DNA of 64,000 nucleotides from a candidate division FCPU426 bacterium (GTDB lineage: Bacteria; Oederibacteriota; Muellerivitia; Muellerivitales; Muellerivitaceae). This document shows positions 31,842 through 60,396 of the stretch, piece after piece (position 1 is the stretch's first letter; the number at the start of each line of letters is the position of its first letter). The notes beneath the pieces were generated by a model, which was not told the origin of the DNA, ran no database searches, and was given only the letters and a program-made list of their open reading frames with translations. The stretch lies in NCBI GenBank assembly GCA_963771075.1, contig CAVYSE010000011.1, positions 141,508 through 205,507 on the forward strand, written 5' to 3'. The translations under genes and the position numbers were made by a program.

Positions 31842-31842
31842 C

Positions 31843-33664: not shown

Positions 33665-33690
33665 TGAGAAATGTTTTTTAAGGAGAAACA

Positions 33691-35127: not shown

Positions 35128-35131
35128 GTAT

Positions 35132-36289: not shown

Positions 36290-36307
36290 TTATGACAAGT
36301 GTCATAA
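36290..36307. promoter_or_regulatory. Palindromic motif site TTATGAC-aagt-GTCATAA (perfect) with an extra half-site TTGTCATAA at 36316-36324
   Basis: Lies in the divergent region between VIT1 (minus) and the histidine kinase (plus). Confidence 0.55.
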
Positions 36308-36393: not shown

Positions 36394-37740
36394 ATGAATA
36401 ATGATTTTTCCGCCCAACGCTTACAGTGGTTCATTCATCTTCGATGGGCGGCGGTTTTCGGGGGAGGGCTGATCGTGGGAGTCGGGACTCGTGTGGGTCC
36501 CCTCCATTTTTCCCTTCTGACTCTGCTGGGCTCTCTCGCTTTTCTGGGTTTGTTGAACGCCGGATATCAATTTCTTTGGAGCCAATGGTGCAAAGATAAC
36601 GCCAACCCGGAAAATCTGGAAAACCGAATCCGCAAGTTATTTCACATTCAAATGGTATTGGATTTCGCCGTTTTGACCTTCATGCTGGCGGTCAGTGGTG
36701 GGATTCAAAATCCTTTTTTTTTATTTTACCTTTTCCATTTGGCCATCAGCACGATCCTTTTTACCGTTTGGGAAAGCTTGGGATACGCGGTCGTAGCGGC
36801 CTTACTGCCCTGGCTCATCTTTTTGATGCAATCTCAATTACCCCAAATGAATTTGGAAGGAAATTCGGGTTTCGGGCTTTCCAGCGGAGGGGAACTTTGG
36901 CCGGTTCTGACCGGGTATACGGTCACCGTCGCTGGCTTGTGGTTTTTCCTCACCCGGCTTGCTTCCGATCTTAGATCGAAGCAGAGATCTTTGGAAGAAA
37001 TGGGCCAAAAGCTGTCCACGGCCAATGAAAATCTCAAAGAAGTGGACGTTTACAAGAATCAATTCCTTCGGCAAGTGGTTTTTCAATTGAAAGGCCCGGC
37101 AATCGATATGGATTTTGATCTTTCCGCGATCGAGCAATCCATGCCGAAGGCGACCGAAAAAACTGAAACGGCGATTAAAACGGCAAAAAAAAGAGTTTGG
37201 TCTTTGCTGGAACTCATTGATGATTTGGTTTGGTTATCGAAAACAAACGTGGAAGAAATGCCGTTCAAGAAAGAAAAAGTGGATGTTTATGAAGTGCTTT
37301 TGAAAAGGGTGCAACATCATGAGGCGGAAGCCCGACAAAAGGGTTTGGAACTCCAACTACATGGAGACCCTCAAATTCACCTAGAAGCGGATCGGGAGGC
37401 TCTGGACCGTGTGGTAGAAAATCTTTTATCCAATTCTCTGAAATATAGCGAGGAAGGGAAAAGCCCTATTTTGGTTGAGTTCAAACGGAATGGAGAATGG
37501 ATGGTCCTGACCGTGGAGGATAAGGGGATCGGGATCCCGGCCAAACAGCAAAAACGCCTGTTCGAGCAATTTTTCCGGGCTACCAACGCTAAAAGCCGGG
37601 AAAAATTTGGCACTGGACTGGGATTGTCCATCGTTCGGGAAATCATTCAATGGCATGGCGGGAAGGTGTCGGTGGAAAGCGAACCCAAGAAGGGAACCCG
37701 CATTGAGACCTGGTGGCCCCTATTGCCGGATAAAAATTAA
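36394..37740 (+). CDS. Membrane sensor histidine kinase (polytopic N-terminus, HisKA, HATPase_c)
   Basis: About 6 TM helices. H-box region LSKTNVEEMP...; N/G boxes NLLSNSLKYS, GTGLGLSIVREI. Confidence 0.8.
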   Translation: MNNDFSAQRLQWFIHLRWAAVFGGGLIVGVGTRVGPLHFSLLTLLGSLAFLGLLNAGYQFLWSQWCKDNANPENLENRIRKLFHIQMVLDFAVLTFMLAVSGGIQNPFFLFYLFHLAISTILFTVWESLGYAVVAALLPWLIFLMQSQLPQMNLEGNSGFGLSSGGELWPVLTGYTVTVAGLWFFLTRLASDLRSKQRSLEEMGQKLSTANENLKEVDVYKNQFLRQVVFQLKGPAIDMDFDLSAIEQSMPKATEKTETAIKTAKKRVWSLLELIDDLVWLSKTNVEEMPFKKEKVDVYEVLLKRVQHHEAEARQKGLELQLHGDPQIHLEADREALDRVVENLLSNSLKYSEEGKSPILVEFKRNGEWMVLTVEDKGIGIPAKQQKRLFEQFFRATNAKSREKFGTGLGLSIVREIIQWHGGKVSVESEPKKGTRIETWWPLLPDKN

Positions 37741-37761: not shown

Positions 37762-38244
37762 CTAATGTTCGATGGCCTTAACTTCGATAGGTTGGGAAAG
37801 ATGGGCGGTTAAATATCGGGTGGAAATCAAGCCCAATTTTGTCCCGTTCGCACCGAAGGCGAAAAGCTGGCAACGTCCCCCCTTCGCCGGGCTGAATTCC
37901 ACGGTGGCATTGGCCTTGGCAGTCGGAGTCTCACGGGTCGCGAACTGTCCCAACTTCATGTTTTCCAAAATCAACCGGAACCCTTGAAGGTCCTTGAGTG
38001 GATATATTTCCAGATCTTGTTGGGCAAGAAATTGCCGAGCTTCAAGGCAAAAGTTCCTCGAGAAGAGCCAAAGACTGTCCCATTCAGTGACTTTTCCTTC
38101 TTCTTCCAGGGATTGAGAAATGAAGATGTCTTCGATGTCTTCGTGCAAAAGACGCGAGGCCACCGAAAGGATTCCGGTCAATCGTTCCATTCCTTGAAAG
38201 TCTAAACCCATGAATTGCGCATACTCCATAAATGTTTCACGCAT
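37762..38244 (-). CDS. Hypothetical protein (160 aa)
   Basis: RBS GGAAGGAAAG lies upstream of ATG 38244. No confident family; there is a weak resemblance to V4R-type small-molecule binding domains in the C-terminus. Confidence 0.5.
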   Translation of the reverse strand: MRETFMEYAQFMGLDFQGMERLTGILSVASRLLHEDIEDIFISQSLEEEGKVTEWDSLWLFSRNFCLEARQFLAQQDLEIYPLKDLQGFRLILENMKLGQFATRETPTAKANATVEFSPAKGGRCQLFAFGANGTKLGLISTRYLTAHLSQPIEVKAIEH

Positions 38245-38305: not shown

Positions 38306-38323
38306 GTATGACCCTTGTCATAA
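38306..38323. promoter_or_regulatory. Palindromic motif site GTATGAC-cctt-GTCATAA
   Basis: Lies 62 nt upstream of the 37762-38244 gene and about 320 nt upstream of acs. The core TATGAC/GTCATA is perfect. Confidence 0.5.
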
Positions 38324-38645
38324 CCACTCAAGGGATCTTCTCCACCCCCGAGTGGAGGGTTTCCTGGTAATTTTTTATCTTGCTATTTAAAGGAGAAATA
38401 CCTTTTCCACTGGTTTTGTTGAAAAAGCGTTATTCGAAAATTTGAAGAGAATTGATCCGGAATAGAACCGTTGAACAATGAGGGGTTTAAAAGAGTCGAT
38501 AAGGTTGCAGGCCATTTGTCGTGGCAATCATTTTCCTTTGGCGCATCGTTTGTCGAAGAAAATTTGGATGACCAACGTCATAGACAAAGGATTGGGTAGG
38601 CGACAAACTACCACGAATTTATTTTTTTATTTCCAGGGAGGAAAT

Positions 38646-40628
38646 ATGGCACCCGAAAAGCAATCCATCACTTCTTTGCAGAAGGATTCCGCAGTGACAT
38701 TCCCGCCTCCGGCCTCGGTGGCCTCCAAGGCATTTATCGGATCCTTCCAAAAGTACCAGGAAATGTATGACCGCTCCGTGAAGGATTCCCACAAGTTTTG
38801 GCTTGAACAAGCCACGAATGAACTGGTTTGGTTCAAGAAACCCACGAAAACACTGGAGTGGACTTGGGACACCTCCAAAAGGAAAATTCAGCATTCCTGG
38901 TTTTCGGATGGCGAGTTGAATTTATCGGTGAACTGTTTGGACCGTCACCTAGCCAAGAACGGAAATAAGATCGCTATCCTTTGGCAGGGCGAAAAGGATG
39001 AGGAAGTCCGTAAAATCACCTATTCTCAATTGCATGAGATGGTTTGTCGGTTCGCCAACGTGCTGCTTGCTAAGGGGGTCAAGAAAGGGGATCGGATCTG
39101 TGTTTATATGCCGATGATCCCCGAGGCGGCGGTGGCCTTGCTCGCTTGCGCCCGAATCGGTGCCATCCACTCCTTCGTTTTCGGCGGTTTTAGCGCGGAG
39201 GCGTTGAAAACCCGCATTCAGGATTCCCAAAATGTGTTGGCCATCACCACGGACGTGAGCTACCGATCTGGAAAAGCAATCGGATTGAAGAATATTCTTG
39301 ATGAGGCCCTCAAGGAATGCCCTACCATCAAGAACGTCATTGTCTACAAGAGGGGTGACGGAAAGGTCAACATGCAGGCCGGCCGGGACAGCTGGTGGGA
39401 TGAGGAGACCCAAAAGGCCAGTCCCAAGCATGAGGCCCAGCCGATGAACGCGGAAGACCCGCTTTTTATCCTGTATACCTCTGGATCCACTGGAAAACCG
39501 AAAGGGGTCCTTCACACGACCGGCGGTTATATCTTACACGCCGCCCTGAGCCACCGCCTCATTTTCGACTGCCATCCCGAGGACACCTATTGGTGCACTG
39601 CCGACATCGGTTGGGTCACGGGCCACAGTTACATCGTCTATGGCCCCCTGGCCAACGGCGTCACATCGATCATGTTTGAGGGAGTACCCACCTACCCAGA
39701 TTCTGGTAGGTTCTGGCAAGTGATCGCCAAACATAAAGTCACCATCTTTTATACCGCGCCCACCGCGATCCGTTCCCTGATGCGAGAAGGGGAAGAATGG
39801 CCGAAAAAGCACGACTTGAGCTCCTTGCGCATCCTGGGCTCGGTCGGTGAACCAATCAATCCCGAGGCATGGTTGTGGTATCACAGGAACATTGGCCAAA
39901 GCCGCTGTCCTATCGTCGATACCTGGTGGCAGACGGAAACGGGTGGTATTTTGATCACCCCACTTCCGGGTGCCCATACTTTAAAACCTGGGAGCGCCTC
40001 TCTTCCCTTTTTCGGGGTGGAGCCCATCGTAGTGGATAATGACGGGAAAGAATGCGCCAGAAACGAAGGCGGAAAACTGTGCATTAAGAAGCCCTGGCCG
40101 GGCATGGCCCGCACCATGTGGGGGGATCACGAACGTTTCATCGACACCTATTTCACCGCTTTCCCCAACCTTTATTACACAGGGGACGGTTGCCGCGTCG
40201 ATCAGGACGGAGATTACTGGCTCATGGGCCGGGTGGATGATGTGGTGAACATCTCTGGACACCGTATCGGGACGGCGGAAGTGGAAAGCGCGCTTGTTTC
40301 CCATCCCAAGGTTTCGGAAGCGGCGGTGGTGGGCTATCCCCACGACATCAAAGGATCGGCCCTTTACGCTTACGTGACCGTGAAGGAGGGCGTGACGCCG
40401 TCAGATGAGCTGAAGAAAGAACTGGTTCAGCATGTGCGCAAGGAAATCGGTCCCATTGCCCAACCGGACAAGATCCAGTTCGCGGAGGCGATGCCCAAGA
40501 CCCGCAGCGGCAAAATCATGCGCCGGATCTTGAGGAAAATAGCAGAGAATGAAACGGGTAATCTGGGCGATATTTCCACCCTGGCCGACCCGTCCGTCGT
40601 GGAAAGGCTGATCCAAGGAAAGCAATAA
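38646..40628 (+). CDS. acs: Acetyl-CoA synthetase (AMP-forming)
   Basis: The N-terminus ...[16 protein letters not shown]..., AMP-binding motif [11 protein letters not shown] and C-terminal ...[17 protein letters not shown] (acetylatable Lys motif) are present. RBS GGGAGG precedes ATG 38646. Confidence 0.9.
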
Positions 40629-40704: not shown

Positions 40705-41739
40705 CTACTTGAACTTGGCCATGTCCAGATGGGACTGCACAAACTGGGTGATCATCGCGACCTTGCCCGGGTCCTGGTGGGTCAAGAGGGGTTCCAAACC
40801 GTCCAGTTGCTTGGCGGTATGGAAAGTATCGGTGGAAACCAATAAAAGCGGTATATTGCGCTGGTTGGCCAAGGAAAGCACATCCGGCGAGGGAAGGATA
40901 TTGTTCGTTAGGATCACTCCGGAGGTGCCTCCCTCCAGGGCGGCCAGGATCATATCGCTCCGGTCCCCGCTGGTAACGACCAATTTTTTATCCTTATTGA
41001 AGAGGGTAAGCCTCCTGGCGCTGTCCACGGACATGGCTCCAATAATGATGTGGCCCACCTCATTGCCCAATCCTCCTTCTCCGGCGAGGGTTTTCGAGAA
41101 AAGCACCTCGGACAGGTAGGCCATAGTGAAATGGTTCAGTTCGGGTTTCAAAGGCAAGATCCCCAGGATGGGAATACCCAACTGGTTGATCTGGGGCAAA
41201 TAGGTCGTTTTGAAATCCTCCAGGTCGTGCACCTTGTTGAGGATGACGCCCTTAAAACGAACGTCCTGGATCGGCAGGCATTTTTTGATGCAGACCAGGT
41301 CGTCCGCGATGGAACCCTCCGAACCGCTCACCACGAGGATCAACTCCCCGCCGAGGGCTTTGGCGACGGAGACGGCGTCCAGGTGCACGGACATTCCGTA
41401 ATTCAAGTGCATGCCGCCTTCCACGAAAAGTAGTTCCTTCCCGGCCCCGGCGTGGGTGGCCACCTCGCGCAGTTTTTCAGTGGTGGTCGCCGCGTCGTAT
41501 TTGTATTTCAACTTGGCGTGCTCGAAGCCGATGGAGATGTCTTCCGGGTTTTCATGAAGGTTCCAGAGGTGGGTCAGCAGGGCGGAATCGTAGTCCCAAA
41601 GGCGTTTTTTGTGATAGATCAACCGGTCGCCGAAGGGTTTCATGTAACCGGACTGTTGTCCTAGCGCGGCGGCAAGGCCGATGATCACTCCCGTTTTGCC
41701 GGAACTTTTGCTGCTTGATCCAATGACGAGTGTTTTCAT
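40705..41739 (-). CDS. Standalone BioD-like (AAA_26) plus DRTGG domain protein, homologous to the N-terminal regulatory domain of long phosphotransacetylases
   Basis: N-terminal P-loop-like MKTLVIGSSSKSSGKTGVIIGLAAAL. C-terminal DRTGG-type segment VVTSGDRSDMILAALEGGTSGVILTN. No PTA catalytic domain. The stop overlaps the start of the downstream ACD gene. Confidence 0.75.
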   Translation of the reverse strand: MKTLVIGSSSKSSGKTGVIIGLAAALGQQSGYMKPFGDRLIYHKKRLWDYDSALLTHLWNLHENPEDISIGFEHAKLKYKYDAATTTEKLREVATHAGAGKELLFVEGGMHLNYGMSVHLDAVSVAKALGGELILVVSGSEGSIADDLVCIKKCLPIQDVRFKGVILNKVHDLEDFKTTYLPQINQLGIPILGILPLKPELNHFTMAYLSEVLFSKTLAGEGGLGNEVGHIIIGAMSVDSARRLTLFNKDKKLVVTSGDRSDMILAALEGGTSGVILTNNILPSPDVLSLANQRNIPLLLVSTDTFHTAKQLDGLEPLLTHQDPGKVAMITQFVQSHLDMAKFK

Positions 41740-44340
41740 TTCTTTTGGGCCCTTTCCGAGAGCAAAACTCTCACATCCAAAGCTTTAACACCTTTTCCCT
41801 GTTCGTAAACAACCAGGGGATTGATCTCAATGTCGGAAATTTTCTCGCATTTCCGAACCAACGAACCGAGTTTGATGATGGCGTCCACGACGCCATCCAT
41901 GTCTTTTTTGTCCTCTCCCCGAACCCCAAGGAGCAGGGGATAGATCTTGGTTTCTTTGATCATGGCCAGGACATCCGATTTGGAGAAGGGAACGGACCGG
42001 AAGGAAACGTCTTTCATTACCTCGACGTAAACCCCGCCCATGCCGCACATCACGATGGGGCCGAAAGAACGGTCCCGCCGGGCACCCACGATGGTTTCCG
42101 TACCTTTTTTCACCATCTCGTTGACTTCAACGCCTTCGATCACCGCGTTGGGATTGTGTTTTCGGCAGTTAAAGAGGATGGCTTCGTAGGCATCCATCAC
42201 CTCTTGCTGGTTTTCCAGGTCCAAGGCGACGCCGCCGACGTCGCTTTTATGAAGGATATCCCGGGAAACCACCTTCATGACCACCGGGTATCCGATTTTT
42301 TCAGCCGATTTAACCGCTTCTTCCAGGGTGCGGGCAATCGAGTTTTTGGGCATGGGAACCCCGCAAAGTTCCATGATCTTCTGTCCCTCGTGGGCCAATA
42401 AAAAAGACCGGCCGTCCGCGGCCGCCTTGTCCAATACGGCATTGACCGCGTCCACCGGGATGTCGTGCTCCACGGGAAAGCCAGGGGGAGACAGGTTATG
42501 CCGGTACTGGGTCATTAAGGCCCCCAAGCAGGAAACGGCCGAATAGGTATCCTCAAAAACGGGCGCATTATCCTGCCGCAGTGAGAGAATGGCCCGCTCG
42601 GTGGGTTCGCCCCCGAAAAGAGAGAACACGATCGGCTTCCCGCCATCGCGGTAACGGACCGTATTCTCGCGGATCATGGTGGCCAGGTTGTCCACGTCAA
42701 AAACCGCCGTCTCACAATAGAGGGCAATGACAGCGTGGATGTTTTCCAGCCTCAAGGCCGCGGCCAAGGCGCCGTCGTAGTCGGAGGACCGGGCCTGACC
42801 CGTCAGGTCGATGGGATTCTTGATGGACCCAAATTCCGGAACTTCCTTGGCGAAGGCTTTTTTCATCAGTTCCACGTCGTCGTAAAGCGGGACCTGGTAT
42901 TTTTCGCAGGCGTCGGTGGCCATGACCCCGATACCGCCTCCGTTTGTGATGATGACCGTATTCTCGCCCCGGGGCGCGGAACTGGACGTGAAACTTTTGC
43001 ACCAGTTAAAGGCATCCTGGAAATTCTCAGCCCTCAAGACCCCGCATTGCTTGACAATGTTATCGAGGATCTCGTCCGAACCGGCCAGGGCGCCGGTGTG
43101 CGAGGCGGCCGCCATGGCGCCCCTTTTGGAACGTCCGGATTTGATCATGATGACGGGCTTCTTCCGGGTCACCCGGTTAATGGTGGAGATCATCCGCTCC
43201 CCGTCCTTGATGCCCTCGGTATAAAGCATGATGACCTTGGTCTGGGGATCGTCCACCAAATATTCCAAAAGATCGGCCTCGGTGATATCCGCCTTGTTGC
43301 CCACGGAAGACATGGTAGAAAGCCCGATGTGGGCCACCGCCGTCTTGCCGATCATGCCGATACCCAGCGCGCCGCTCTGGGTGATGATGGCCACGTGGCC
43401 TTTCTGGATCTGGGGTCCAAAGGTGGCGTTCAGGTCGGCGTTGGCCGAGTAGATACCGAAGATGTTGGGCCCCATGACCCGCATGCCATGATCCAGGGCG
43501 AAGGACACCAGGGCTTTTTCTTCGGCCACGTTGCCCGTCTCGGAAAAACCGGAGGTGATGACGGGCAGGAACTTGACGCCGTTGGCCGCGCATTCCTTGA
43601 CCGAATCCATGACGAACTTGGCCGGGACCGAGATGCAGGCCAGTCGATGGGCTCCTCTATCTCCGCGAAGGCTTTTCGCCATGGTCAGTCCCAAGCACCT
43701 CCCCGCCCTTGGGGTTGATGGGATACACCTTGCCCTTGATAGCCGCCGGAAAAATATTCTCCACGATCTTGTAACCCACCTTGTCGGGGCTGGCGGAAGC
43801 GCCCACCACGGCCACCGAGCGGGGCTCGAATAGGTATTTGATGTCAGGTCGATTAGGTTGTTCAACGGTTCCTCCGCGGAAGGTCATTTTCAGCTCAACC
43901 ACATTCGTGTTCGTGCGCTTCTGCAAGTCAAATCCTTGATTCTCGAAAAGATGCAGCATGGCGGTGTTTTCCTGAAGGACCTCGGCGGTGAACCCGAAGA
44001 GCCCCTGCTTCTTCGCCAACATGGTCAGGTAGGAAAGAAGCTCCGTTCCGACCCCCTTGTTATGATAATCGTCCTTCACGACGAAGGCGACTTCGGCGGA
44101 ATGCTGGTTTTCCTGGATGCCGTATTGCCCCACCCCGATGATCTCCTCCCGCCCCTGGTCCTCCGCGAAAGCCAGGATGACCATTTCCTTGCTATAGTCG
44201 ATCACGACGAATTCCTGAAGCCTTTCGTGGGGCATGTCCTTACGCACCGACATGAATCGTCGGGACATGCTCTGGTCGGACAGGGAATAGAAAAAATCCT
44301 TAAGGCCGGGTTCGTCATTGATCTTGACGGGGCGCATCAA
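41736..44340 (-). pseudogene. Pat-like protein lysine acetyltransferase (N-terminal GNAT fused to an NDP/ADP-forming acyl-CoA synthetase), reading frame broken near 43690
   Basis: ORF 43657-44340 encodes a GNAT domain (...AEVAFVVKDDYHNKGVGTELL...) followed by the start of the CoA-binding domain (RSVAVVGASASPDKVGYKIVENI...KVYPINPKGGEVLG). ORF 41736-43865 carries the remaining CoA-binding, CoA-ligase and ATP-grasp domains; its first ~55 codons are off-frame. The junction lies in a CCCCAAGGGCGGGGAGG tract. Confidence 0.65.
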
Positions 44341-45886: not shown

Positions 45887-45904
45887 CTATGACTCAAGTC
45901 ATAT
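45887..45904. promoter_or_regulatory. Palindromic motif site CTATGAC-tcaa-GTCATAT, with an overlapping degenerate copy at 45871-45888
   Basis: Lies in the divergent region between the CoA-transferase/pat operon (minus) and the deacetylase gene (plus). Confidence 0.5.
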
Positions 45905-47186: not shown

Positions 47187-47204
47187 ACATGACAACTGTC
47201 ATAA
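47187..47204. promoter_or_regulatory. Palindromic motif site ACATGAC-aact-GTCATAA (~120 nt upstream of the beta-barrel gene)
   Basis: Matches the 7-4-7 consensus with one flank mismatch. Confidence 0.5.
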
Positions 47205-47325: not shown

Positions 47326-48558
47326 ATGAAAAGGTTTTTGTTTTTTTCGATTTTGACTTCCCTGTTTCTGGCGGGATGGGGTACTAAGGTTTTCGCCCAA
47401 GCTACCGAAGTTAAGAATCAGGGAACCCCGGCGGTGACTCCTGAGGCGACGATGGCCGTACCCGCCTCTCCGGTTATAACGGTGGGTGGCTTGGTGGATG
47501 CGTACTATACCTACAACTTCACCAACTCCAGCAAAAACATGAACGGCCACGGAAACGTTGGATACAGCTATGACAACCTTAACGCCGTAGGTTTGAACAA
47601 CGTCGACGATGTTTTCTCCCTGGGCGTGGCGGAATTGATCGTGAAGATGAAGCAGGGCGACGTCAGCGGGATCGTGGCGATATGGACACAGATGGAAGCG
47701 GGCAACTCCGTTATGAACATCTTGGTGGCCAACGCGACCTACTCCCCCGGGCAATTCGCCTTCATGGCCGGCCGTTTCGGTGATTTTATGGGGAACGAGG
47801 CGTTCGATACCAACATGAACTGGAACTACAGCCATTCGCTCATGTACAACGATACCCTGCCCTTGTGGCTTCAGGGTGTTAGCGCCGCCTATATGCCTTC
47901 CGATTCCTTCAAGGTCACGGCTTACGCGACGGAAGGATGGATCAACGACCCGGGTAATATGAACGATTATGGGAAAACCTACGGGTTGGCGATTAACATC
48001 AAACCCGATGAGGTTTGGGGCGTGAAGTTGAACGGAATTGCCGGGCCGAACGAAGGGTATTACTCGAGCGTCACGAATCCGGGGGACTCCCTTTACGTGG
48101 GCGAACTCATCCTCAAGTGCACGGCGACCCAAGACTTTTCATGGGCCCTGGATGCCGAGTATGGCGGGTTGGACCCTGTGGCCGAGGATCATTTGGCCAG
48201 CTTGAGCAGTGAGACCTTCTGGGGCGCGGCCCTTTACGGCAGATACAACATCGCGGCGGACTGGAACATTGGACTTCGTCTGGAAGAATTGGAATCGAGC
48301 AATAGCTGGCTTTATAACGGCATGATTCCTTCGGTCACACCTTATGTGGAAACCCGAGAAGCCACTTTGACGCTATCCAACCAAGTCACGAAAAACCTGT
48401 TGCTCCGCCTGGAAGGCCGTTACGACATGGCCTTGACCGGCGGAACGATGGATGCGGCCGAGACCACCTCTCCCACGGGCGGGGTTTACGTTGGGCCTTA
48501 CGCGGGCGGGTCCGGCGATCAATTGACGACCACCGCCAGCGCGGTGTTGAGCTTCTAA
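47326..48558 (+). CDS. Outer-membrane beta-barrel protein (putative porin)
   Basis: Signal peptide, then alternating amphipathic beta-strands rich in Y/N/G and a C-terminal ...AVLSF ending in an aromatic residue, which is an OMP signature. Confidence 0.6.
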   Translation: MKRFLFFSILTSLFLAGWGTKVFAQATEVKNQGTPAVTPEATMAVPASPVITVGGLVDAYYTYNFTNSSKNMNGHGNVGYSYDNLNAVGLNNVDDVFSLGVAELIVKMKQGDVSGIVAIWTQMEAGNSVMNILVANATYSPGQFAFMAGRFGDFMGNEAFDTNMNWNYSHSLMYNDTLPLWLQGVSAAYMPSDSFKVTAYATEGWINDPGNMNDYGKTYGLAINIKPDEVWGVKLNGIAGPNEGYYSSVTNPGDSLYVGELILKCTATQDFSWALDAEYGGLDPVAEDHLASLSSETFWGAALYGRYNIAADWNIGLRLEELESSNSWLYNGMIPSVTPYVETREATLTLSNQVTKNLLLRLEGRYDMALTGGTMDAAETTSPTGGVYVGPYAGGSGDQLTTTASAVLSF

Positions 48559-48650: not shown

Positions 48651-48702
48651 CGGTTGATCGGATGGGCTTGTGCGTATTCATCTAATAAAGGAGGCAGGAA
48701 CA

Positions 48703-49302
48703 ATGACGACTCAAAGTGAACCCATGAAGCTTGCGGACACTACTGCTAATCCGGCACCCTTGGGCTTGTTGGGCTTCGGGATGACGACCGTGTTGTTAAA
48801 CTTCCACAACGCGGGGTTTTATGCTCTGGATTCGATGGTCTTGGCTATGGGCATTTTTTACGGCGGCTTAGCCCAGGTGATCGCAGGGGTCCAAGAATGG
48901 AAAAAGAACAACACCTTCGGCGCCACGGCCTTTACTTCCTACGGGATGTTCTGGCTGACCTTGGTGGCTCTGCTGACCCTGCCCAAGCTGACGTTCCTGG
49001 GTTGGGCTGGCCCGGATGCCAACTCCTTCTCGGTTTACCTGGCTCTCTGGGGTATCTTTACATTGGTTATGTTCGTGGGAACTTTAAAACTCAACCGCGC
49101 TCTACAGGTTGTTTTCGGATCGCTCGTTATTCTTTTCTTCATGCTTTCCGCCGGCAAGGCAATGGGAAGCGAGGATATCATCCACATCGCCGGGTATGAG
49201 GGTATATTCTGCGGGGCATCGGCGATCTATACCGGGCTGGCCCAGGTCCTCAACGAGGTTTACGGAAAAGTGGTTTGGCCGCTGGGACCCGTGAAGAAAT
49301 AG
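48703..49302 (+). CDS. satP: Succinate-acetate/proton symporter (GPR1/FUN34/YaaH family, SatP)
   Basis: Hallmark N-terminal NPAPLGLLGFGMTT and a 6-TM profile. RBS AAGGAGG lies 8 nt before ATG 48703. Confidence 0.85.
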   Translation: MTTQSEPMKLADTTANPAPLGLLGFGMTTVLLNFHNAGFYALDSMVLAMGIFYGGLAQVIAGVQEWKKNNTFGATAFTSYGMFWLTLVALLTLPKLTFLGWAGPDANSFSVYLALWGIFTLVMFVGTLKLNRALQVVFGSLVILFFMLSAGKAMGSEDIIHIAGYEGIFCGASAIYTGLAQVLNEVYGKVVWPLGPVKK

Positions 49303-49361: not shown

Positions 49362-49392
49362 GAAACCCGCCCCAATGGGCGGGTTTTTTGTT
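49362..49392 (+). terminator. Rho-independent terminator after satP
   Basis: CCCGCCC-caat-GGGCGGG stem followed by TTTTTTG. Confidence 0.75.
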
Positions 49393-49597
49393 AATTACCA
49401 TGAAAAGATTATAGAAATAAGCCAAATTTCTTCTTTTTACTCTTTGGAAATCCTCTTTATTTTCATGACTGAAATCATAGAAATAACGGGCTCGATTTTT
49501 GTCGTAATCCATTATGTTTCTTCGGCCCTATACCTTGCCCTTTAGTTGGCATGTCGTTACAATTTATAAAAGGAGTTGAAAAGGGGAGGAATGCGCA

Positions 49598-50296
49598 ATG
49601 CTTCATTCACAAACATCGCCCGGCAAACAACCTAACATGGTTGGCCGCTCCTTTATTTCCTCCCTGGAAGTTTTCAAAAAGATCCCATCTTCCCACCTGC
49701 TTGAACTCGAAAAGAAAATGGTTGAGCGCAAGTATGCCAAGGGTGAATCCCTTTTCCTCGAAGGCGACCCGGCAGAATACGTCTGGTTTGTCAAGGAAGG
49801 CCATGTCAAGGCCGTTATCCATACCGCCAATGGGCGGGATTTGACCCTCTGTATGGTGGGGGCGAATAGTCTTTTCGGGACCTGCTGCTGTTTCGGAGGG
49901 GGAGAATATCCCTGTCACAGCGTGGCGGAAACTGAAACCACAGTCGTGGCCCTTCCCATGCAGGAGTTCATCAATCTTTTGGATAAATACCCGGAAGTTG
50001 GTAAGTCCATCGTTTTCCACCTTTCCAAACGCTTACGCCAGGCCAAAGATATGCAGACCTTTGACCAGGAAAGCGTGGAAAAACGGATTCTTCACCTTCT
50101 CGTGAACCTTGTGGCTGAATTCGGCAACACCATCCCCTTGACCCGGCGTGAGATCGCGGAAATGACTGGAACAACGGTGGAAACTTGTATCCGAACCTTT
50201 TCCAATCTTGAAAAGGAAGGGTTGGTTTCCAGCGCTAGGGGAAAGATTACAGTAAAAAGCGTACAAGATTTGATCGATCGGCAGGAGGAACTTTAA
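49598..50296 (+). CDS. CRP/FNR-family transcriptional regulator with a Cys cluster in the sensor domain
   Basis: cNMP-binding-like beta-roll (KGESLFLEGDPAEYVWFVKEGHVK), then the HTH REIAEMTGTTVETCIRTFSNLEKEGLV, whose recognition helix is FNR-like (E..R conserved). Unusual TCCCFGGGEYPC cysteine cluster. Confidence 0.8.
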   Translation: MLHSQTSPGKQPNMVGRSFISSLEVFKKIPSSHLLELEKKMVERKYAKGESLFLEGDPAEYVWFVKEGHVKAVIHTANGRDLTLCMVGANSLFGTCCCFGGGEYPCHSVAETETTVVALPMQEFINLLDKYPEVGKSIVFHLSKRLRQAKDMQTFDQESVEKRILHLLVNLVAEFGNTIPLTRREIAEMTGTTVETCIRTFSNLEKEGLVSSARGKITVKSVQDLIDRQEEL

Positions 50297-50330
50297 AAAT
50301 ATTGTATTGAAGCAATATTCCTTAAAAAAA

Positions 50331-50357
50331 ACCGCCCCTGAAGGAGCGGTTTTTTTG
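50331..50357 (+). terminator. Terminator after the CRP/FNR-family gene
   Basis: ACCGCCCC-tgaa-GGAGCGGT stem followed by TTTTTTT. Confidence 0.6.
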
Positions 50358-50385
50358 TTTTTGAACGATTTTGAGCTTAGAACAA

Positions 50386-50727
50386 CTACCGATTGGAAGT
50401 TGCTTTCATCGAATCGGTTTTGCGTGAAAGAATTAGCAAATGGATTTCGTGGTCTCGGGTTCCCTCCAGAATGACCTGAACCGATTCCATTGAGGACCAA
50501 GGGGCGAAATAAAGCTTGTTTTCACCTTCCTTATCCCGCGGAATTTCCCTTAACGAGATCGTATCTACCTTTTCCAGAAAAAAACGGCCCCAAAGCCAGA
50601 GACCGGTATCGTCTTTCTGAGAAACCTGGCCGCGAAAAATGGTGTTCTCCGACTTATTTCCGGTTTTGGTGAATGCGTCTTTCCACAAAATCCGAACATG
50701 ATGACCGGCGAGTTGATATTCATCCAT
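50386..50727 (-). CDS. Hypothetical protein (113 aa)
   Basis: ORF with a weak RBS. No family recognised. Confidence 0.35.
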   Translation of the reverse strand: MDEYQLAGHHVRILWKDAFTKTGNKSENTIFRGQVSQKDDTGLWLWGRFFLEKVDTISLREIPRDKEGENKLYFAPWSSMESVQVILEGTRDHEIHLLILSRKTDSMKATSNR

Positions 50728-53793: not shown

Positions 53794-54186
53794 ATGGATA
53801 AAAGACAAATATCAATATTGGTGGCCGAGGATGAAGACAACGCCCGTTTGCTTTATTTTGACGAACTCTCGGATGAGGGATACCGCGTCTACCCCGCCAT
53901 GAATGGCCTTCAAGCCTTGGGCCTGCTGGAAGATAACAAGATCGATTTGGTCGTCACCGATATCAAAATGCCGGACATGCATGCCTTGGAGATGATCCCC
54001 TGGATCCGGGCTGAATACCCCGGATTGCCGGTCATCGTGGTTTCGGCTTTCAAGGGCATGGAAAATGACTTCAATTTGAAAGAAAATTTCATCGATGGCT
54101 TTTTCGCAAAACCAGTGAATATGGAAGCGCTGAAAAGGAAAATAGAAGAAATCTTGACCAGCCGTTTGGCGCACCATGCCGCGTAA
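53794..54186 (+). CDS. Single-domain response regulator (CheY-like receiver)
   Basis: The sequence ILVAEDEDNARL...DLVVTDIKMPDM...VIVVSAF contains the phospho-acceptor Asp. RBS GGAGGAG precedes the start, 4 nt after the kinase stop. Confidence 0.8.
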   Translation: MDKRQISILVAEDEDNARLLYFDELSDEGYRVYPAMNGLQALGLLEDNKIDLVVTDIKMPDMHALEMIPWIRAEYPGLPVIVVSAFKGMENDFNLKENFIDGFFAKPVNMEALKRKIEEILTSRLAHHAA

Positions 54187-54467: not shown

Positions 54468-57400
54468 ATGAAACCCGTCCCTGGCGACTCCAACCCAGAT
54501 TCCGAAGAGAAACGATTGCTTCTCATTTGCCATGAGGATCTAATCGCCTCGCGTATCCTTAAAATCCTTGAAAAGATTTCTGTGGAGCCATACGCCGTTG
54601 AGCGAGCGATGATTTTCGGACAGGTTTTCAAGGCGGTGGCAAACCCAAGTTTCCACATTTGTTTGATCGTGGAAAGCACCGACCCGAATCAAGCCCTTAG
54701 TTTTTTGCATACCTCCCTGTTGAAACAACGCGACATTCCAATAATCCTCCTGAGCCATATGGACCCGGACGCGGGGACGGTGGAAGCGTTCCGACTCGGG
54801 GCCGCCGATTTCATTTCGTTGAATCAATTAGACGCGACGGTTTTGGAGCGCTCCCTCCGCTACGCCCTCGAACGCAAAAGGGCGAGAGATGCCGTCCGTG
54901 AGAGTGAGGATTTTTTTCGCGTCGTCATCGAGAATAATCAAGACGGCATCTCGGTCATCGACCCGAATGGAAAAGTCCGCTATACCAGTTCTTCCTTGTC
55001 GAGGATATTGGGTTATAGCCCCGAGGAAAGGATCGGTAAATATACGTTCGATGTTTTGCACCCCGATGACATGAATTGGATCCAAGAAGCGTTCAAGGGG
55101 TTGTTGCAAAATCCGGGAAGTGTTCAAAAGGGACAAGTTCGCGCGCGACACAAAGACGGCGCTTGGCGTTATTTGGACTTGGCCGCGAAAAGCCATTATT
55201 TTTCCCAGTATTCCTCCCTCGCCGTGGTTTTGAATTACCGGGATGTGACCGACCGGGTCAAAGCCCAACAGGTCACGGAACGGCTGGCCTCTATTGTCGA
55301 TTCCTCCCATGACGCCATTTATACCCTTTCCCGGGAAGGCGTCATATTCAGCTGGAATCCGAGGGCCCGGGAAATCTATGGATTTCCGCCCGAGGAAATC
55401 AGCGGCCGGCATTTTTCGCTCATCATGGATCAGGATGAAAGCAACCGTTTTCAAACAACGCTGGAAGAAGTTTTTGAAGGCCGGGGACCGAATTCTTTTC
55501 AAACAACCCACCGCTCAAAGGTCGGGAAACTCATTTCTGTTTCCTTGGTCCTTTCCCCGATTAGGGATTCCAAGGGACAAATTAACCGGGTTTCAGTTAT
55601 CGCACGGGATATTTCACCCGAATACAAGTTAATGGAAATCGGGAAACGGCTTTCCAGCCTTCTCGAGAACGCGCCCACCGCCATTTACAGCGGGGACAAA
55701 GAAGGCGTTATCACGATGTGGAGCCGGGGAGCGGAGAAAATATTCGGTTATAAAGCGGAGGAAATGATCGGCCAAAAAACCGATATTTTGGAAGTGCCCG
55801 AAAATCCGGGCGAGATTGCGAAGTTACGAAAAGAAGTGAACGATGGAAAGGCTCATATCCATTATGAGACCGTACGCCGTCGTAAAGACGGAAGCCGGGT
55901 CAACATGATATTCCAGATATTCCCGGCTTTGGATGCCAATGGAAAAAATGTCGGAGTAACCGCGATTGGGGAGGACGTTACTTCCCGAATGATAGCGGAA
56001 CGGGCTTTAAATGAAAGCGAGGCCCGTCTTCGTGATATTTTTGAAAAGAGCCCCTTGGGAATGGCCTTGACGACCACCAGCGGTCTATTGAGGATCGTCA
56101 ACCCGAAGTTTTGCCAGATGCTTGGATATGAACCTTCCGAATTGATCGATCGGCCCATTATGGAGATCAGTTACCCCCAAGACCTGCCGAGAGAAGTGGA
56201 GGGGATGAGAAATTTAATCCAAGGAAAAATCGGTTACTTGGAATTGGATAAAAGATACCTCCATAAAAGGGGGCATTGGATATGGACCCATCTGGTCGCT
56301 TCCATGTTAACCCCCGAAAAAAGCGAGGATAACCTGGTATTGGGAATGGTGGAGGATATCACGGACCGGGTCTTCGCGAAGAGGGCTTTGGAGGAAAGCG
56401 AGGCCCGATTCAAGCAGATATTTCATGAAAGCCCCATTGGTATGGGTTTGGTGCGGCAGGACGGCATCGTTTTGATGATCAATCCGAAGTTCTGCCAGCT
56501 TCTGGGATATAACGAGTCCGAATTGATCGGCCGAAATTATTTTGAGTTCATTTCGCCGGACGAACTAAAAGAAGCCAAGGATAACCTGGCGGCCATGTAC
56601 CGGGGAGACCGGCATTCCTATTCGGTTGAACGGCGGTACCGCCGCAGGGATGGCCAATGGTTTTGGGGCCATATGGAAGTGACCAGGATGAAAACAGCCG
56701 AAGGCGCCCCGCTTTTGGCTTTCGGAATGTTGGAAGACATCAGCGAACGCAAGAAATCGCAGGAAACAAGGGAGTTCCTGGTCAATGTACTCGAAAACAC
56801 CGGGGAAGCCGTCATCACCGCCGACTTGAACGGGACCTTGCTTAGCTGGAACAAGGCAGCGGAAACCCTTTACGGATTCACGGCGGCGGAGGCGATAGGC
56901 AAAAAAGCCCGGGATCTCATGCCGGAAGGAAAAGCGCGGGAAATTCAAGCGTTAATGGATCGGTTCATTCAGGGGGAGAAAATTAAGAACCATGAAATGA
57001 TCCGCTTAAAGAATAACGGGGAGCCTTTTTACGCCTCCATCACCTTTTCATTGTTAAAGGACGAAAGGGGCGCCAAAAAGGGCATTACCATGGTCATCCG
57101 GGACGTCAGTGAAATGAAAAAGGCCCGTAAGTCCCAAGACCGATTGGCGAACATCCTTGAACATTCCTATGACGCCATCCTTGGCATCGATATGGAAGGC
57201 GTGATCACCCATTGGAATATAGGCGCCGAGACAATGTTCGGATACACCGCCTCGGAAGCGCACGGCCAAAACATCCAATTGCTGGTCCCGGAGGAATATC
57301 GGTCGGAAACACGTTATTTGATGGAAAAAGCGGTCAAGGGGGAGTCGGTCGGAAATTTCGAGACCGTGCGGAGAAGAAAAAACGGTTCCCTGATCGACGT

Positions 57401-59018
57401 GTCCCTCAATGTCTCGCCTTTCAAAGATGACTCAGGGAAGGTCACGGCGGTTTCGGCGATATTACGGGACATCACGGAAACGAAAAAGGCGCGGGAAACG
57501 CGGGAGCGTTTGGCGGATATTTTGGAAAACAGCCCCATTGCCATCACCACGACCAATCTGGAAAGGAAGTTCATTCAATTCAACCATGCGGCTGAAAACC
57601 TTTATGGGTATAAAGCGGAGGAGATGTTGGGGAAAACCCATCGGACCCTGGTGCCGGAGGATCATTGGCAGCAACATTTAGAGGTCCGGGAAAATGTGCT
57701 CCAAGGGCAATCCGTCGTTCATTTTGAGTCGGTCCGGCGGAGAAAGGACGGGCAACCGATCGCGGTTTCAAGCACCCTTATTCCCTACCGGGATAGTGAA
57801 GGGAAAATCATGGGAGTCACGGCGATGTCGGTCGACATCACGGAACAAAAAAAAGCCGCGGAGACGCTGAATCGAAAGGAAGAGCAGATCAAACTGGCCC
57901 AGAAAATGGAAGCCATCGGCCGATTGGCGGGGGGAGTCGCCCATGACTTCAACAACCTATTGAGCATTATCGGGGGTAACGCCAACTTTGTCCTGGATGA
58001 CCCTGCCTTTGAAGGACCCCACCGGGAAGAATTGGAAGAAATCAAGAAAGCCGTCCAGCAGGGGTCCGATTTAACCCGCCAACTGCTCTTGTTGGGGCAA
58101 AAGCAAATCTCCCAGGCCCAACCTATCCAACTCAACGATCTTTGCCGGGAAATGATGAAAATGTCCAAGCGGTTAGTGGACGCGTCCATCGAAATCACAC
58201 TCGACCTGGAAAAGGACCTGCACCCCATCTTCGCGGACCTGATCCAGATCCAGCAGGTGATCCTAAACCTGGTGTTGAACGCCCGGGACGCCATGCCGCG
58301 GGGCGGGAACCTGAGGATCCAAACCCGAAACGAGGTTTCGGAAGGCCAGCCATTTCTTTCGGAATACGCCTCCTGGGTCAAGTTGACCGTCACGGACACG
58401 GGAGTCGGGATGGATGCCCAGGTTCAAAAACATATCTTTGAACCCTTTTATACCACGAAGGGTGCGAAAGGAACCGGGTTGGGATTGACGACTGTTTATG
58501 GAATCGTGAAGCAATGGAAGGGACAGGTTCAAATCGAAAGCGCGGTGGGCCAGGGAACTTCTTTTTTCATATATTTCCCGGCTCATGAATCCGTGGAGAA
58601 ACAACCGGGTTTATCCCGACAGGTTTCCCTGATACCGAATGGTTCCGAAACCATCCTGGTGGTCGAGGACGAGCCCTCGGTCCGTCAGATCGTGGTCAAG
58701 AGTCTTCGAAAATGGGGATATAAGGTTCTGGAAGCGGAAAATGGGGTGGACGCAGTTCGGGAAAGTTGGAATTATAAAGGGGAAATCCACCTGCTTTTAA
58801 CCGATACCGTCATGCCTAAAATGGACGGGTTTCAGCTCGCGGAAGAATTAAGAAACACCAGGCCGCGGATGAAGGTGCTTTTCATGTCGGGATACCCGCG
58901 GGATATCCTTTCCAGCAAAGGGATATTGAACCCGGACATCTTTTTAGTGAGAAAACCATTCGCGAAAGATGAGCTTGCCCAACAAATACGGCAATTGTTG
59001 GACCAAAAGAAAAAATAA
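54468..59018 (+). CDS. Giant hybrid sensor histidine kinase (N-terminal receiver-like domain, about 8 PAS/PAC domains, HisKA, HATPase_c, C-terminal receiver)
   Basis: Repeated PAS cores are present (e.g. ...NPKFCQMLGYEPSELIDRP..., ...NPKFCQLLGYNESELIGRN...). H-box LAGGVAHDFNNLL; G-box GTGLGLTTVYGIV; C-terminal REC (LVVEDEPSVRQ...LLLTDTVMPKMDG). Confidence 0.85.
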   Translation: MKPVPGDSNPDSEEKRLLLICHEDLIASRILKILEKISVEPYAVERAMIFGQVFKAVANPSFHICLIVESTDPNQALSFLHTSLLKQRDIPIILLSHMDPDAGTVEAFRLGAADFISLNQLDATVLERSLRYALERKRARDAVRESEDFFRVVIENNQDGISVIDPNGKVRYTSSSLSRILGYSPEERIGKYTFDVLHPDDMNWIQEAFKGLLQNPGSVQKGQVRARHKDGAWRYLDLAAKSHYFSQYSSLAVVLNYRDVTDRVKAQQVTERLASIVDSSHDAIYTLSREGVIFSWNPRAREIYGFPPEEISGRHFSLIMDQDESNRFQTTLEEVFEGRGPNSFQTTHRSKVGKLISVSLVLSPIRDSKGQINRVSVIARDISPEYKLMEIGKRLSSLLENAPTAIYSGDKEGVITMWSRGAEKIFGYKAEEMIGQKTDILEVPENPGEIAKLRKEVNDGKAHIHYETVRRRKDGSRVNMIFQIFPALDANGKNVGVTAIGEDVTSRMIAERALNESEARLRDIFEKSPLGMALTTTSGLLRIVNPKFCQMLGYEPSELIDRPIMEISYPQDLPREVEGMRNLIQGKIGYLELDKRYLHKRGHWIWTHLVASMLTPEKSEDNLVLGMVEDITDRVFAKRALEESEARFKQIFHESPIGMGLVRQDGIVLMINPKFCQLLGYNESELIGRNYFEFISPDELKEAKDNLAAMYRGDRHSYSVERRYRRRDGQWFWGHMEVTRMKTAEGAPLLAFGMLEDISERKKSQETREFLVNVLENTGEAVITADLNGTLLSWNKAAETLYGFTAAEAIGKKARDLMPEGKAREIQALMDRFIQGEKIKNHEMIRLKNNGEPFYASITFSLLKDERGAKKGITMVIRDVSEMKKARKSQDRLANILEHSYDAILGIDMEGVITHWNIGAETMFGYTASEAHGQNIQLLVPEEYRSETRYLMEKAVKGESVGNFETVRRRKNGSLIDVSLNVSPFKDDSGKVTAVSAILRDITETKKARETRERLADILENSPIAITTTNLERKFIQFNHAAENLYGYKAEEMLGKTHRTLVPEDHWQQHLEVRENVLQGQSVVHFESVRRRKDGQPIAVSSTLIPYRDSEGKIMGVTAMSVDITEQKKAAETLNRKEEQIKLAQKMEAIGRLAGGVAHDFNNLLSIIGGNANFVLDDPAFEGPHREELEEIKKAVQQGSDLTRQLLLLGQKQISQAQPIQLNDLCREMMKMSKRLVDASIEITLDLEKDLHPIFADLIQIQQVILNLVLNARDAMPRGGNLRIQTRNEVSEGQPFLSEYASWVKLTVTDTGVGMDAQVQKHIFEPFYTTKGAKGTGLGLTTVYGIVKQWKGQVQIESAVGQGTSFFIYFPAHESVEKQPGLSRQVSLIPNGSETILVVEDEPSVRQIVVKSLRKWGYKVLEAENGVDAVRESWNYKGEIHLLLTDTVMPKMDGFQLAEELRNTRPRMKVLFMSGYPRDILSSKGILNPDIFLVRKPFAKDELAQQIRQLLDQKKK

Positions 59019-59043: not shown

Positions 59044-60396
59044 TTAAACCTGGTCTTTCTTCAAACCGTAACGTTTCAACTGGTTAAAGAGGGTTTTACG
59101 GGTAATGCCCAGTAAATCGGCGGCCTTGGATTTATTCCCCTTGGTCATGGTCAGGGCCCGTTGAATATTCAAAATATCCGATTCCTTCTGTTTCAACACG
59201 GGTTTATCCAAGGAGGGGAAGGGTTTTACCTCCCGAACTTCTTTCGGCAAGTCTCTCAGGGTCAAGCCGCCTCCCTTGGCCATTACCACCATGCGTTCAA
59301 TCAGGTGTTTGAGTTCACGAACGTTTCCGGGCCAGGAATAGGCTTGCAGGGCCGAAAGGATATCCTTGTTTAGGAGGCTTAGGTTTTTATTGAAGGCCCG
59401 GCAGGCCTCCTGGTGGAAAAATTGAGCCAATTGGGCGATATCTTCCGACCGGTTGCGCAGCGGGGGGATTTCCAAGGGAACCACATTCAAGCGATAAAAC
59501 AAATCGGCCCGGAACCGGCCTTCTTTGACCTCGTTCTCCAGGTTGCGGTGGGTCGCGGTAATGATGCGGACGTCAAAGGGGATTTCTTTCACGCCGCCTA
59601 GCCTGCGGGAGGTCTTTTGCTCCAATACCTTCAGTAATTTGGTCTGAACCGCCTGGGTGAGCTCACCAATTTCATCCAGGAAAAGACTGCCCCCGTTGGC
59701 GATCTCGAACAAACCCTGTTTCTGCCTGCGGGCATCGGTGAAAGCACCCTGCTCATAACCGAAAAGCTCGGATTCCAGAATCGTTTCCGGCAAGGCTCCG
59801 CAATGGATTTCCACAAAGGGCCTGGAGGCGCGGGAAGAAAAGGAATGGACCAACCGGGCCACATGCTCCTTTCCCGTTCCCGTCTCCCCCAGGATCAAAA
59901 CCGTAATTTGGTCCTGCTGGGCGACCTGCGTTATGGAGGTATAAAGTTTTTGCATTTCCGGGTTGGAGAGGAAAAGGTAATCCTTGCGGTACATTTCCAA
60001 CTGGTTTTTCTTGAGTCCCTCGATTTGGGTGATCAGGCCCCGCTTCTCGGCGATGTGTTTCGTGATGAGTTTGAGTTTTTGGTGATCGATGGGTTTCTCG
60101 AGATAATCCTCCGCGCCAAGCTTCATGGCCTGAACGGCCGAGTCCACCGTACCCCCTCCGGTGATGATGACGACGGAGCAAGCGCTATAGGCCTGGTTCA
60201 GCTTTTCCAACACTTCCATGCCGTTGACGTCGGGCAGGTGAATGTCCAAAAGAAGCATGTCAGGCTGGATGATCTTATGCTTTTCGATCCCCTCGGACGC
60301 GGTATAGGCGGGATAAACCTCGTGGCCTTCTTGGGTCAATATTTTGGAAAGGATTTTGACGAGGGATTCTTCATCGTCCAAGATCAGAATTTTCAA
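59044..60396 (-). CDS. NtrC-family sigma-54-dependent response regulator (REC, AAA+ sigma-54 activation domain, Fis-type HTH)
   Basis: REC (ILILDDEES...LLLDIHLPDVNG), Walker A GETGTGKE, GAFTDA motif, ESELFGYEQGAFT and C-terminal HTH. Confidence 0.85.
   Translation of the reverse strand: MKILILDDEESLVKILSKILTQEGHEVYPAYTASEGIEKHKIIQPDMLLLDIHLPDVNGMEVLEKLNQAYSACSVVIITGGGTVDSAVQAMKLGAEDYLEKPIDHQKLKLITKHIAEKRGLITQIEGLKKNQLEMYRKDYLFLSNPEMQKLYTSITQVAQQDQITVLILGETGTGKEHVARLVHSFSSRASRPFVEIHCGALPETILESELFGYEQGAFTDARRQKQGLFEIANGGSLFLDEIGELTQAVQTKLLKVLEQKTSRRLGGVKEIPFDVRIITATHRNLENEVKEGRFRADLFYRLNVVPLEIPPLRNRSEDIAQLAQFFHQEACRAFNKNLSLLNKDILSALQAYSWPGNVRELKHLIERMVVMAKGGGLTLRDLPKEVREVKPFPSLDKPVLKQKESDILNIQRALTMTKGNKSKAADLLGITRKTLFNQLKRYGLKKDQV

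Follow-up and report, generated by a model that had tools for sequence, protein, structure and literature searches.

The window analysed here, a 64-kb stretch of contig CAVYSE010000011.1 from a candidate division FCPU426 bacterium, contains a single gene for a transcriptional regulator that belongs to the CRP/FNR family. This gene (49598–50296, plus strand) starts with ATG, is preceded by a GGAGG ribosome-binding site (RBS) 8 nt upstream and encodes a protein of 232 amino acids (aa), here called the regulator, whose C-terminus reads ...SVQDLIDRQEEL. The gene is monocistronic; the SatP gene upstream closes with a terminator (49362–49387), so that the regulator gene forms a separate unit. Two minus-strand open reading frames (ORFs) that overlap it (49603–50020 and 50033–50500) were taken as spurious, since the plus-strand product has strong homology. 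FCPU426 is an uncultured phylum of soil and peat, for which we know of no cultured member and no genetics.

The assignment to the CRP/FNR family, made in a preliminary description of this DNA, is borne out by Pfam domains, by a profile search of the PDB and by Foldseek. The protein presents the N-terminal beta-roll, the long dimerisation helix and the C-terminal winged helix-turn-helix of the superfamily; the cNMP_binding domain (PF00027) covers residues 43–131 (E 1e-19) and HTH_Crp_2 (PF13545) covers residues 163–226 (E 2e-14). The AlphaFold2 (AF2) model, built from 52 homologues with a mean predicted local distance difference test (pLDDT) value of 82, has the canonical CRP/FNR architecture. 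Its top match in Foldseek was GlxR bound to cyclic AMP (cAMP) (4cyd; template modelling score, TM, 0.81), with M. tuberculosis CRP at a TM of about 0.8 and the holo-FNR variant structures of A. fischeri (9qly, 8qto and 9qmc) at 0.78. The DNR structure 3dkw was a weak profile match (E 2e-11). The PDB profile search and Foldseek returned generic CRP/FNR structures only, none of them with cysteines in the pocket. The regulator reached no equivalog cutoff of NCBIfam; the top scorers were NtcA, CRP, FtrB, FixK and Fnr, all far below. NtcA (TIGR03697, score 64 against a cutoff of 245) and YeiL (NF007707, 19.8 against 180) were rejected as identities.

The regulator has 244 homologues at E ≤ 1e-10. 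Its nearest relatives, with up to 94% identity, come from metagenome-assembled genomes of FCPU426 and a few of Firestonebacteria; weaker relatives (32–40%) are found in Nitrospirota, Thermodesulfovibrionia and Deferribacteres. FCPU426 genomes carry 2–4 paralogues each, with near-identical recognition helices (TTVET[CS]IRT).

All cysteines of the regulator are at positions 85, 96, 97, 98, 106 and 197. The first five lie in a segment of the beta-roll (49850–49915, plus strand), with the codons of C85 at 49850–49852, C96 at 49883–49885, C97 at 49886–49888, C98 at 49889–49891 and C106 at 49913–49915; residues 95–106 (49880–49915) read TCCCFGGGEYPC. Among 121 homologues of 58–100% identity, C85, C96, C97 and C106 are invariant, while C98 is Cys in 90 and C197 is Cys in 83 and Ser in 38; H107 is His in 71, and Asn or Gln in the others. 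The preliminary description had pointed to a CCC-x7-C cluster. The conserved cluster in the beta-roll stands, with a corrected membership that leaves C98 outside and brings C85 in, and the signature becomes C-x10-CC-x8-C (C85-x10-C96-C97-x8-C106). Conservation among orthologues, on which the proposal had been staked beforehand, was found for these four cysteines in 121 of 121 sequences. The set is also retained in representatives of 29–41% identity; about nine clusters at 50% identity carry all four cysteines (among 1.84 billion cluster representatives), including members at 41%, 31% and 29% identity. The cysteines are absent, with the loop length kept, from sister paralogues of 41–58% identity and from all the Nitrospirota relatives. 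These Cys-free proteins keep the loop length and the fold, and the cysteines are therefore not required for folding; in the paralogues the four mostly disappeared as a set, and this suggests that they form a single functional unit.

Alignment to E. coli CRP with hhalign placed C85 at S62, T95 at E72, C96/C97 at L73/G74, P105 at R82 and C106 at S83, with C96/C97 at the start of the CRP phosphate-binding-cassette (PBC) helix. In the AF2 model, DSSP assigned C96–C98 to a short helix (95–99) and C85 to a strand (81–87), with C106 just before the strand 107–110. In CRP, S62, E72, R82 and S83 are the textbook contacts of cAMP. As judged from this alignment, the four invariant cysteines line the effector pocket where CRP binds cAMP. 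The positions of the cAMP-binding Glu and Arg (E72 and R82) are occupied by T/S/A and P in the homologues. Binding of cAMP is unlikely, because the regulator has T and P where CRP has E72 and R82, and Cys in place of both S62 and S83; cAMP sensing was rejected on the loss of the binding Glu and Arg. A structural review of 2026 gives cAMP, 2-oxoglutarate, chlorophenol, cyclic di-GMP, glutathione (nearby) and salt bridges as the contents of the cavity in CRP/FNR proteins, and no metal centre (PMC12937710).

Other representatives of the same broad clade (P0135, P0136 and similar) have different Cys patterns in the pocket region, for example C85 together with an FCC that directly precedes the PBC helix, or the equivalents of C97 and C106 alone. 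The Cys content of the pocket appears, from these sequences, to have evolved repeatedly in this clade. The representative P0190 (31% identity), almost a singleton, carries the same four-Cys signature and is encoded by the middle one of three tandem CRP/FNR genes on a metagenomic contig (L078:5302–8769), with a 70-aa ORF and a radical SAM gene interspersed; the gene neighbours at this locus gave no clue to function.

The other element under study is a palindrome, ATGAC-N4-GTCAT. With at most one mismatch, the window has 11 copies of it where 0.99 would be expected, a count that none of 100 shuffles reached; as an 18-mer with at most three mismatches it occurs 13 times against 1.27 expected. Ten of the 11 sites are intergenic, in a window that is about 89% coding and 11% non-coding (acs start taken as 38646). 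Of 226 site flanks, from the window and 34 FCPU426 loci, 48 presented TAnnnT exactly 22 nt downstream of the palindrome, with a background of about 2.5; the other offsets between 0 and 43 each gave counts of 0–9, typically 1–4. The matrix from 68 such promoters was t-A-T-G-A-[C>T]-N4-G-T-C-A-T-A-a, and its promoter-proximal half is the better conserved. With the start site taken 7 nt after the −10 element, TAnnnT at +22 places the centre of the palindrome at −41.5. In class II CRP/FNR promoters, the activator bound at −41.5 replaces the −35 element. The predicted −10 hexamers begin 22 nt after the 14-bp site, the class II geometry, and by this prediction the palindrome is a class II activator site.

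The DNA-recognition helix of the regulator, TVETCIRTF (T193–F201; 50174–50200, plus strand), was located by alignment to TVETISRLL of FNR. In the 121 homologues V194, E195, R199 and T200 are invariant, I198 is kept in 120 and position 197 is Cys or Ser; the same helix is found in the Nitrospirota relatives. The hhalign alignment to E. coli FNR matched E195 and R199 to E209 and R213, with I198 in place of S212. This agrees with the earlier observation that the Glu and Arg of FNR are kept and the residues between them altered. The Glu and Arg of the CRP/FNR helix read the TGA/TCA core, and S212 of FNR reads the first T of TTGAT. Isoleucine in place of this serine fits the A at the first half-site position of ATGAC, the shifted half-site that had been proposed for this helix. 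The recognition helix (V-E-T-C-I-R) probably reads the palindrome tATGAC-N4-GTCATa.

All 17 orthologues (at least 68% identity) have, in the 300 bp upstream of their gene, a copy of the palindrome with at most one mismatch, despite differing neighbour genes; no such copy was found upstream of any of the 15 genes for Cys-bearing sister paralogues. In the window, the candidate autoregulatory site is ATGACTGAAATCAT (49465–49478), centred at −126.5 from the ATG, and a sigma-70-like promoter, TTGCCC-17-TACAAT, lies at 49535–49563, upstream of the regulator gene. In one Nitrospirota group, a Cys-free relative with the helix TTVETSIRT adjoins the same palindrome in 10 of 11 loci, with TAnnnT at +22. 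Since these relatives share helix and site, the DNA-reading part is common to the wider clade and the Cys pocket an innovation on it. Loci of the Thermodesulfovibrionia/Nitrospirota group A (helix TTVETCIRTM) contained no ATGAC-N4-GTCAT and essentially no perfect TGA-N6-TCA palindrome.

Beside the TTVETSIRT relatives, the palindrome faces the gene of a small membrane protein of 136–137 aa, conserved after the Cys-free regulator (for example L065:10752–11165 and L077:10790–11200, both minus strand). This protein matches only positions ~343–399 of the COX1 profile (heme-copper oxidase subunit I).

The regulator had been put forward as the cognate factor for the palindrome. The upstream site in the 17 orthologues and the Nitrospirota loci with the same helix uphold the association; exclusivity does not follow, because the 2–4 paralogues of each genome share the helix and no exclusive assignment is possible. 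Another explanation is that the regulator gene is only a target, the palindrome being read mainly by a same-helix sister paralogue, with or without the cysteines, and the regulator having partly different sites of its own. The number of paralogues and their TTVET[CS]IRT helices would permit this, the same palindrome is used by Cys-free Nitrospirota relatives, and an upstream site confined to the orthologue group of the regulator is equally expected of a target gene. On the other hand, the regulator is the only CRP/FNR gene in a site-dense window of 64 kb, autoregulation is common in this family, and the identical contact residues predict that the regulator binds this palindrome whatever the sister paralogues do. 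We consider it improbable that the gene is a target and not the reader of these sites.

Within the window the regulator probably activates about ten promoters, that of its own gene included. The site at 20119–20132 faces a radical SAM/SPASM gene (18896–19996, minus strand; TIGR04053, AhbD-like, above cutoff), with TACAAT at +22 on the minus strand; that at 20272–20285 lies upstream of a bacteriohemerythrin gene (20371–20781, plus strand; NCBIfam NF033749), with TAATAT 22 nt downstream. The operon of RIC/ScdA, DUF2249/TusA and NMO-like proteins (21723–24819, plus strand) is preceded by a site at 21622–21635 with TACCCT at +22; its RIC protein matches TIGR03652 with 224 bits against a cutoff of 204.7. 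A further site (24858–24871, CATAAT at +22) precedes the genes of a phosphoribosyltransferase-like protein and a ZIP metal transporter (24940–26519, plus strand). The perfect 18-bp palindrome TTATGACAAGTGTCATAA (36290–36307, with the 14-bp site at 36292–36305) lies between VIT1 (35462–36223, minus strand) and a histidine kinase (36394–37740, plus strand), a pair that recurs as target in other FCPU426 loci. The site at 38308–38321 (TTATAT at +22) is upstream of a gene for 160 aa without family match (37762–38244, minus strand).

Three sites are next to genes of acetate metabolism. A perfect palindrome (38568–38581) lies in the promoter of acs (38646–40628, plus strand), whose product matches TIGR02188, acetate--CoA ligase, with 1015 bits. 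The start of acs is almost certainly the ATG at 38646, where the Acs profile begins and which has the RBS GGGAGG, and not the ORF start at 38478; the palindrome is therefore a promoter site and not an intragenic one. The operon of acetyl-CoA hydrolase/transferase, GNAT/ADP-forming-ACS-like and DRTGG proteins (45811 down to 40705, minus strand) has its site at 45889–45902, with TATAAT at +21/22. The genes of a porin (47326–48558, plus strand) and the SatP/YaaH acetate channel (48670–49302, plus strand) have theirs at 47189–47202, with TAAAAT at +22. In other FCPU426 genomes, the families downstream of sites near regulator genes were kinase (10), Pat-like (5), hemerythrin (5), VIT1 (4), YceI (4), Acs (3), CoA-transferase (3), cytochrome c (3) and ScdA (2). 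In the predicted regulon, genes for the scavenging of acetate stand beside genes for iron, Fe-S and O2 protection.

Some other features of the window were observed. In the acetyl-CoA hydrolase/transferase operon, the ORF for GNAT plus a CoA-binding domain (43657–44340) and the ADP-forming-ACS-like ORF (41736–43865, both minus strand) overlap by ~209 nt in different frames, and near 43700 a tblastn match over them shifts frame, −2 giving way to −3; this may be either a frameshift or assembly error in one fusion gene, or a genuinely split gene. Its GNAT-first domain order is the reverse of that in the 916-aa Pat-like protein adjoining the regulator in locus L001. An operon for an aa3-type cytochrome c oxidase (COX2, COX1, COX3) and an O2-dependent fatty-acid desaturase occupy 29766–34275; from these genes, the FCPU426 bacterium appears able to respire oxygen, and O2 would be physiologically relevant to it. 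A second hemerythrin-domain protein of 205 aa (34600–35217, minus strand) adjoins the oxidase operon with no strong palindrome near, the closest having three mismatches (34515). Farther downstream, a 1516-aa hybrid histidine kinase with ~7–8 PAS domains and a receiver domain (54468–59018, plus strand) is flanked by a single-domain response regulator (53794–54186) and a sigma-54 activator (59044–60396, minus strand).

Comparison with known systems suggests that the regulator likely works in the manner of FNR and ANR: it would activate class II promoters through a box of the FNR type and likely carries a labile metal centre. FNR of E. coli and Aliivibrio fischeri (PDB 5cvr, 5e44) and ANR of Pseudomonas belong to the same superfamily and fold, and the Glu and Arg of their E--SR motif are kept in the regulator. 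Like the regulator, they use a 14-bp palindrome of the TGA-N6-TCA type centred at −41.5 in class II promoters, and their regulons join respiration and carbon genes with genes for protection from O2 and nitric oxide (NO). They also hold a labile cluster on four cysteines, as the four cysteines of the regulator probably do. The differences are in the placement of the ligands and in the box. FNR binds its [4Fe-4S] cluster by the N-terminal C20, C23 and C29 together with C122, whereas the regulator lacks all of them; the alignment made with hhalign begins at residue 50 of FNR and pairs C122 with a non-Cys residue, and it confirms, together with the inventory of cysteines, the previously noted absence of the N-terminal FNR motif. 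The four cysteines of the regulator lie, unlike those of FNR, inside the beta-roll effector pocket. FNR has the box TTGAT-N4-ATCAA and Ser212, while the regulator has ATGAC-N4-GTCAT and Ile. The identity as a proteobacterial FNR was rejected, as the Cys set, the E--SR motif and the box all differ and the NF008365 score is 44.6 against a cutoff of 228.

Fnr of the B. subtilis type carries a C-terminal [4Fe-4S] cluster on three cysteines plus Asp; the regulator has no Cys after residue 197, and this identity was rejected for the missing C-terminal cluster. With the Bacillus-type Fnr, the family gained Fe-S sensing more than once, at different positions of the fold and without a dimer-monomer switch (PMC12937710). 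The effector pocket of the regulator has the same topology as those of E. coli CRP, Corynebacterium GlxR and M. tuberculosis CRP. CRP has Glu72, Arg82, Ser83 and an R-E--R helix, whereas the regulator has T95, P105, C106 and, at R180, V194; a cAMP-dependent CRP was rejected on the cassette residues and the helix, with an NF008732 score of 61 against a cutoff of 266. The targets acs and the GNAT/ADP-forming-ACS-like protein resemble acs and the acetyltransferase Pat of the E. coli CRP regulon.

The nearest published box is the motif wyTTGACnnnnGTCAArw of HcpR1, predicted for Geobacter, Desulfuromonas, Desulfotalea and cyanobacteria (Rodionov et al. 2005, PMC1274295), which differs from tATGAC-N4-GTCATa at the first half-site position alone. 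The motifs reported for HcpR are TTGAC-N4-GTCAA (HcpR1), GTAAC-N4-GTTAC (HcpR2) and TGTGA-N6-TCACA (Desulfovibrio), and the predicted HcpR1 regulons often include hemerythrin-like and ferredoxin-like genes, with dnrN (RIC) in the same NO network (PMC1274295). What defines HcpR is that it controls hcp/frdX and is linked to them. The HcpR identity was rejected because no large ORF of the window has a Prismane/Hcp domain and because the box differs. CRP position 180 is Ser or Pro in HcpR1 but Val in the regulator, and descriptions of HcpR1 include no set of cysteines in the pocket. Among the window ORFs scanned, none was seen to be a nir, nor or coo gene. In the literature on CRP/FNR beta-roll Cys or Fe-S, on the motif and on FCPU426, we found no description of this subfamily, of its Cys signature or of its box.

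Every part of the preliminary interpretation that can be tested in silico is supported by these analyses. We propose that the regulator is an FNR-like class II activator with an Fe-S cluster in the former cAMP pocket as effector, governing a low-oxygen regulon, and regard this as having an even chance of being correct. The dimeric regulator would bind tATGAC-N4-GTCATa at −41.5, replacing the −35 element, and recruit RNA polymerase in the class II manner. A [4Fe-4S] or [2Fe-2S] cluster held by C85, C96, C97 and C106 would be a built-in, destructible ligand. The intact cluster (low O2, no NO, iron-replete cells) would, like cAMP in CRP, keep the PBC helix and the long C-helix in the conformation that binds DNA, and attack by O2 or NO, or loss of the cluster, would switch the regulator off. 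The regulon would be a low-oxygen programme similar to those of FNR and ANR, with bacteriohemerythrin, RIC, the AhbD-like radical SAM protein, VIT1/ZIP and the uptake and activation of acetate. Hemerythrin is activated by ANR in Pseudomonas, and dnrN/RIC is under the control of DNR or NsrR. By analogy the holo form is favoured as the active one, because an ANR-activated hemerythrin, O2-independent radical SAM enzymes and Fe(II) handling fit anoxia.

Cofactor, signal and sign of response are inferred in this proposal, as is the role of this paralogue as the binder. Several points weigh against it. No cofactor is readable from sequence, the spatial clustering of the four cysteines comes from the alignment to CRP, and a single cluster ligated by two adjacent cysteines is uncommon. 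RIC is usually induced on cluster damage, which makes the sign of the response uncertain, and a switch active in the oxidised or apo form, by analogy with SoxR or apo-IscR, stands as a genuine alternative. In the window, the site of the regulator itself has no TAnnnT at +22. With 2–4 paralogues per genome of nearly the same helix, a sister may serve some or all of the sites. In addition, the regulon was sampled from the window and from the 10-kb flanks of regulator genes.

The cysteines could also act as a thiol-based redox switch without metal, in which a disulfide (between the vicinal C96 and C97, or between C85 and C106) or a modification of C197, by oxidants, electrophiles or persulfides, alters DNA binding. 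Thiol switches of this family are known in L. casei FLP, CprK and FixK2 (Cys183). Vicinal Cys pairs are redox-active, C197 sits in the recognition helix, the regulon has an oxidative and nitrosative-stress flavour, and FixK2 and CprK provide precedents (PMC12937710). However, four invariant cysteines exceed the need of a disulfide switch, C197 is replaced by Ser in 38 of the 121 homologues, and the cysteines were mostly lost together in the paralogues, as for one metal site; we hold this switch to be unlikely.

A four-Cys site is also the classical site of zinc, and Zn(II) or another metal outside Fe-S chemistry could stabilise the former cavity, giving either constitutive activity or a sensing of Zn/Fe availability. 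Non-allosteric members of the family fill the cavity with salt bridges (PMC12937710), and ZIP and VIT1 are among the targets. Nevertheless, the Cys-free paralogues keep loop length and fold, so that a structural metal is not required, and the targets RIC, hemerythrin and radical SAM indicate Fe-S/O2 biology over zinc, which makes this reading quite unlikely. A sensor of NO or CO by heme-thiolate or another small ligand, similar to CooA, DNR or P. gingivalis HcpR and with C106/H107 or another Cys as axial ligand, is very unlikely: C106 and H107 are adjacent, the targets RIC, DUF2249 and the NMO-like protein are NO-related and some homologues bear the automated JGI name 'nitrogen oxide reductase regulator', but H107 is His in only 71 of the 121 homologues, the four invariant cysteines would be left unexplained, P. 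gingivalis HcpR (9day) is weakly similar, with a TM of about 0.5, and no hcp, nor or nir gene was present among the window ORFs scanned.

Returning to the proposed Fe-S activator, the conserved pocket suggests that the signal of the regulator is probably oxygen, NO or iron, perceived by way of a bound metal cluster. The sensing of O2 by FNR-type proteins is a textbook example, and the cluster is known from two positions, at the N-terminus in proteobacteria and at the C-terminus in Bacillus. A tentative extension, which we hold to be somewhat more doubtful than probable, is that the pocket cluster (C85, C96, C97 and C106) represents a third independent acquisition of Fe-S in the CRP/FNR family, whose loss by O2, NO or iron limitation would mimic the loss of cAMP. 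The regulator would then be a master regulator of low oxygen and iron in FCPU426, coupling acetate scavenging to the hemerythrin, RIC and iron-transport genes. If true, the pocket cluster would show how a nucleotide-gated switch is convertible to a metal-cluster-gated one through the same allosteric path. The signature C-x10-CC-x8-C in the cyclic-nucleotide-binding fold would be a new Cys signature for the annotation of sensors in uncultured phyla. The box is well defined and its geometry at −41.5 is fixed, so that a ready-made map of the FCPU426 regulon is at hand; this map suggests that acetate use is regulated together with iron handling and Fe-S repair in peat and soil.

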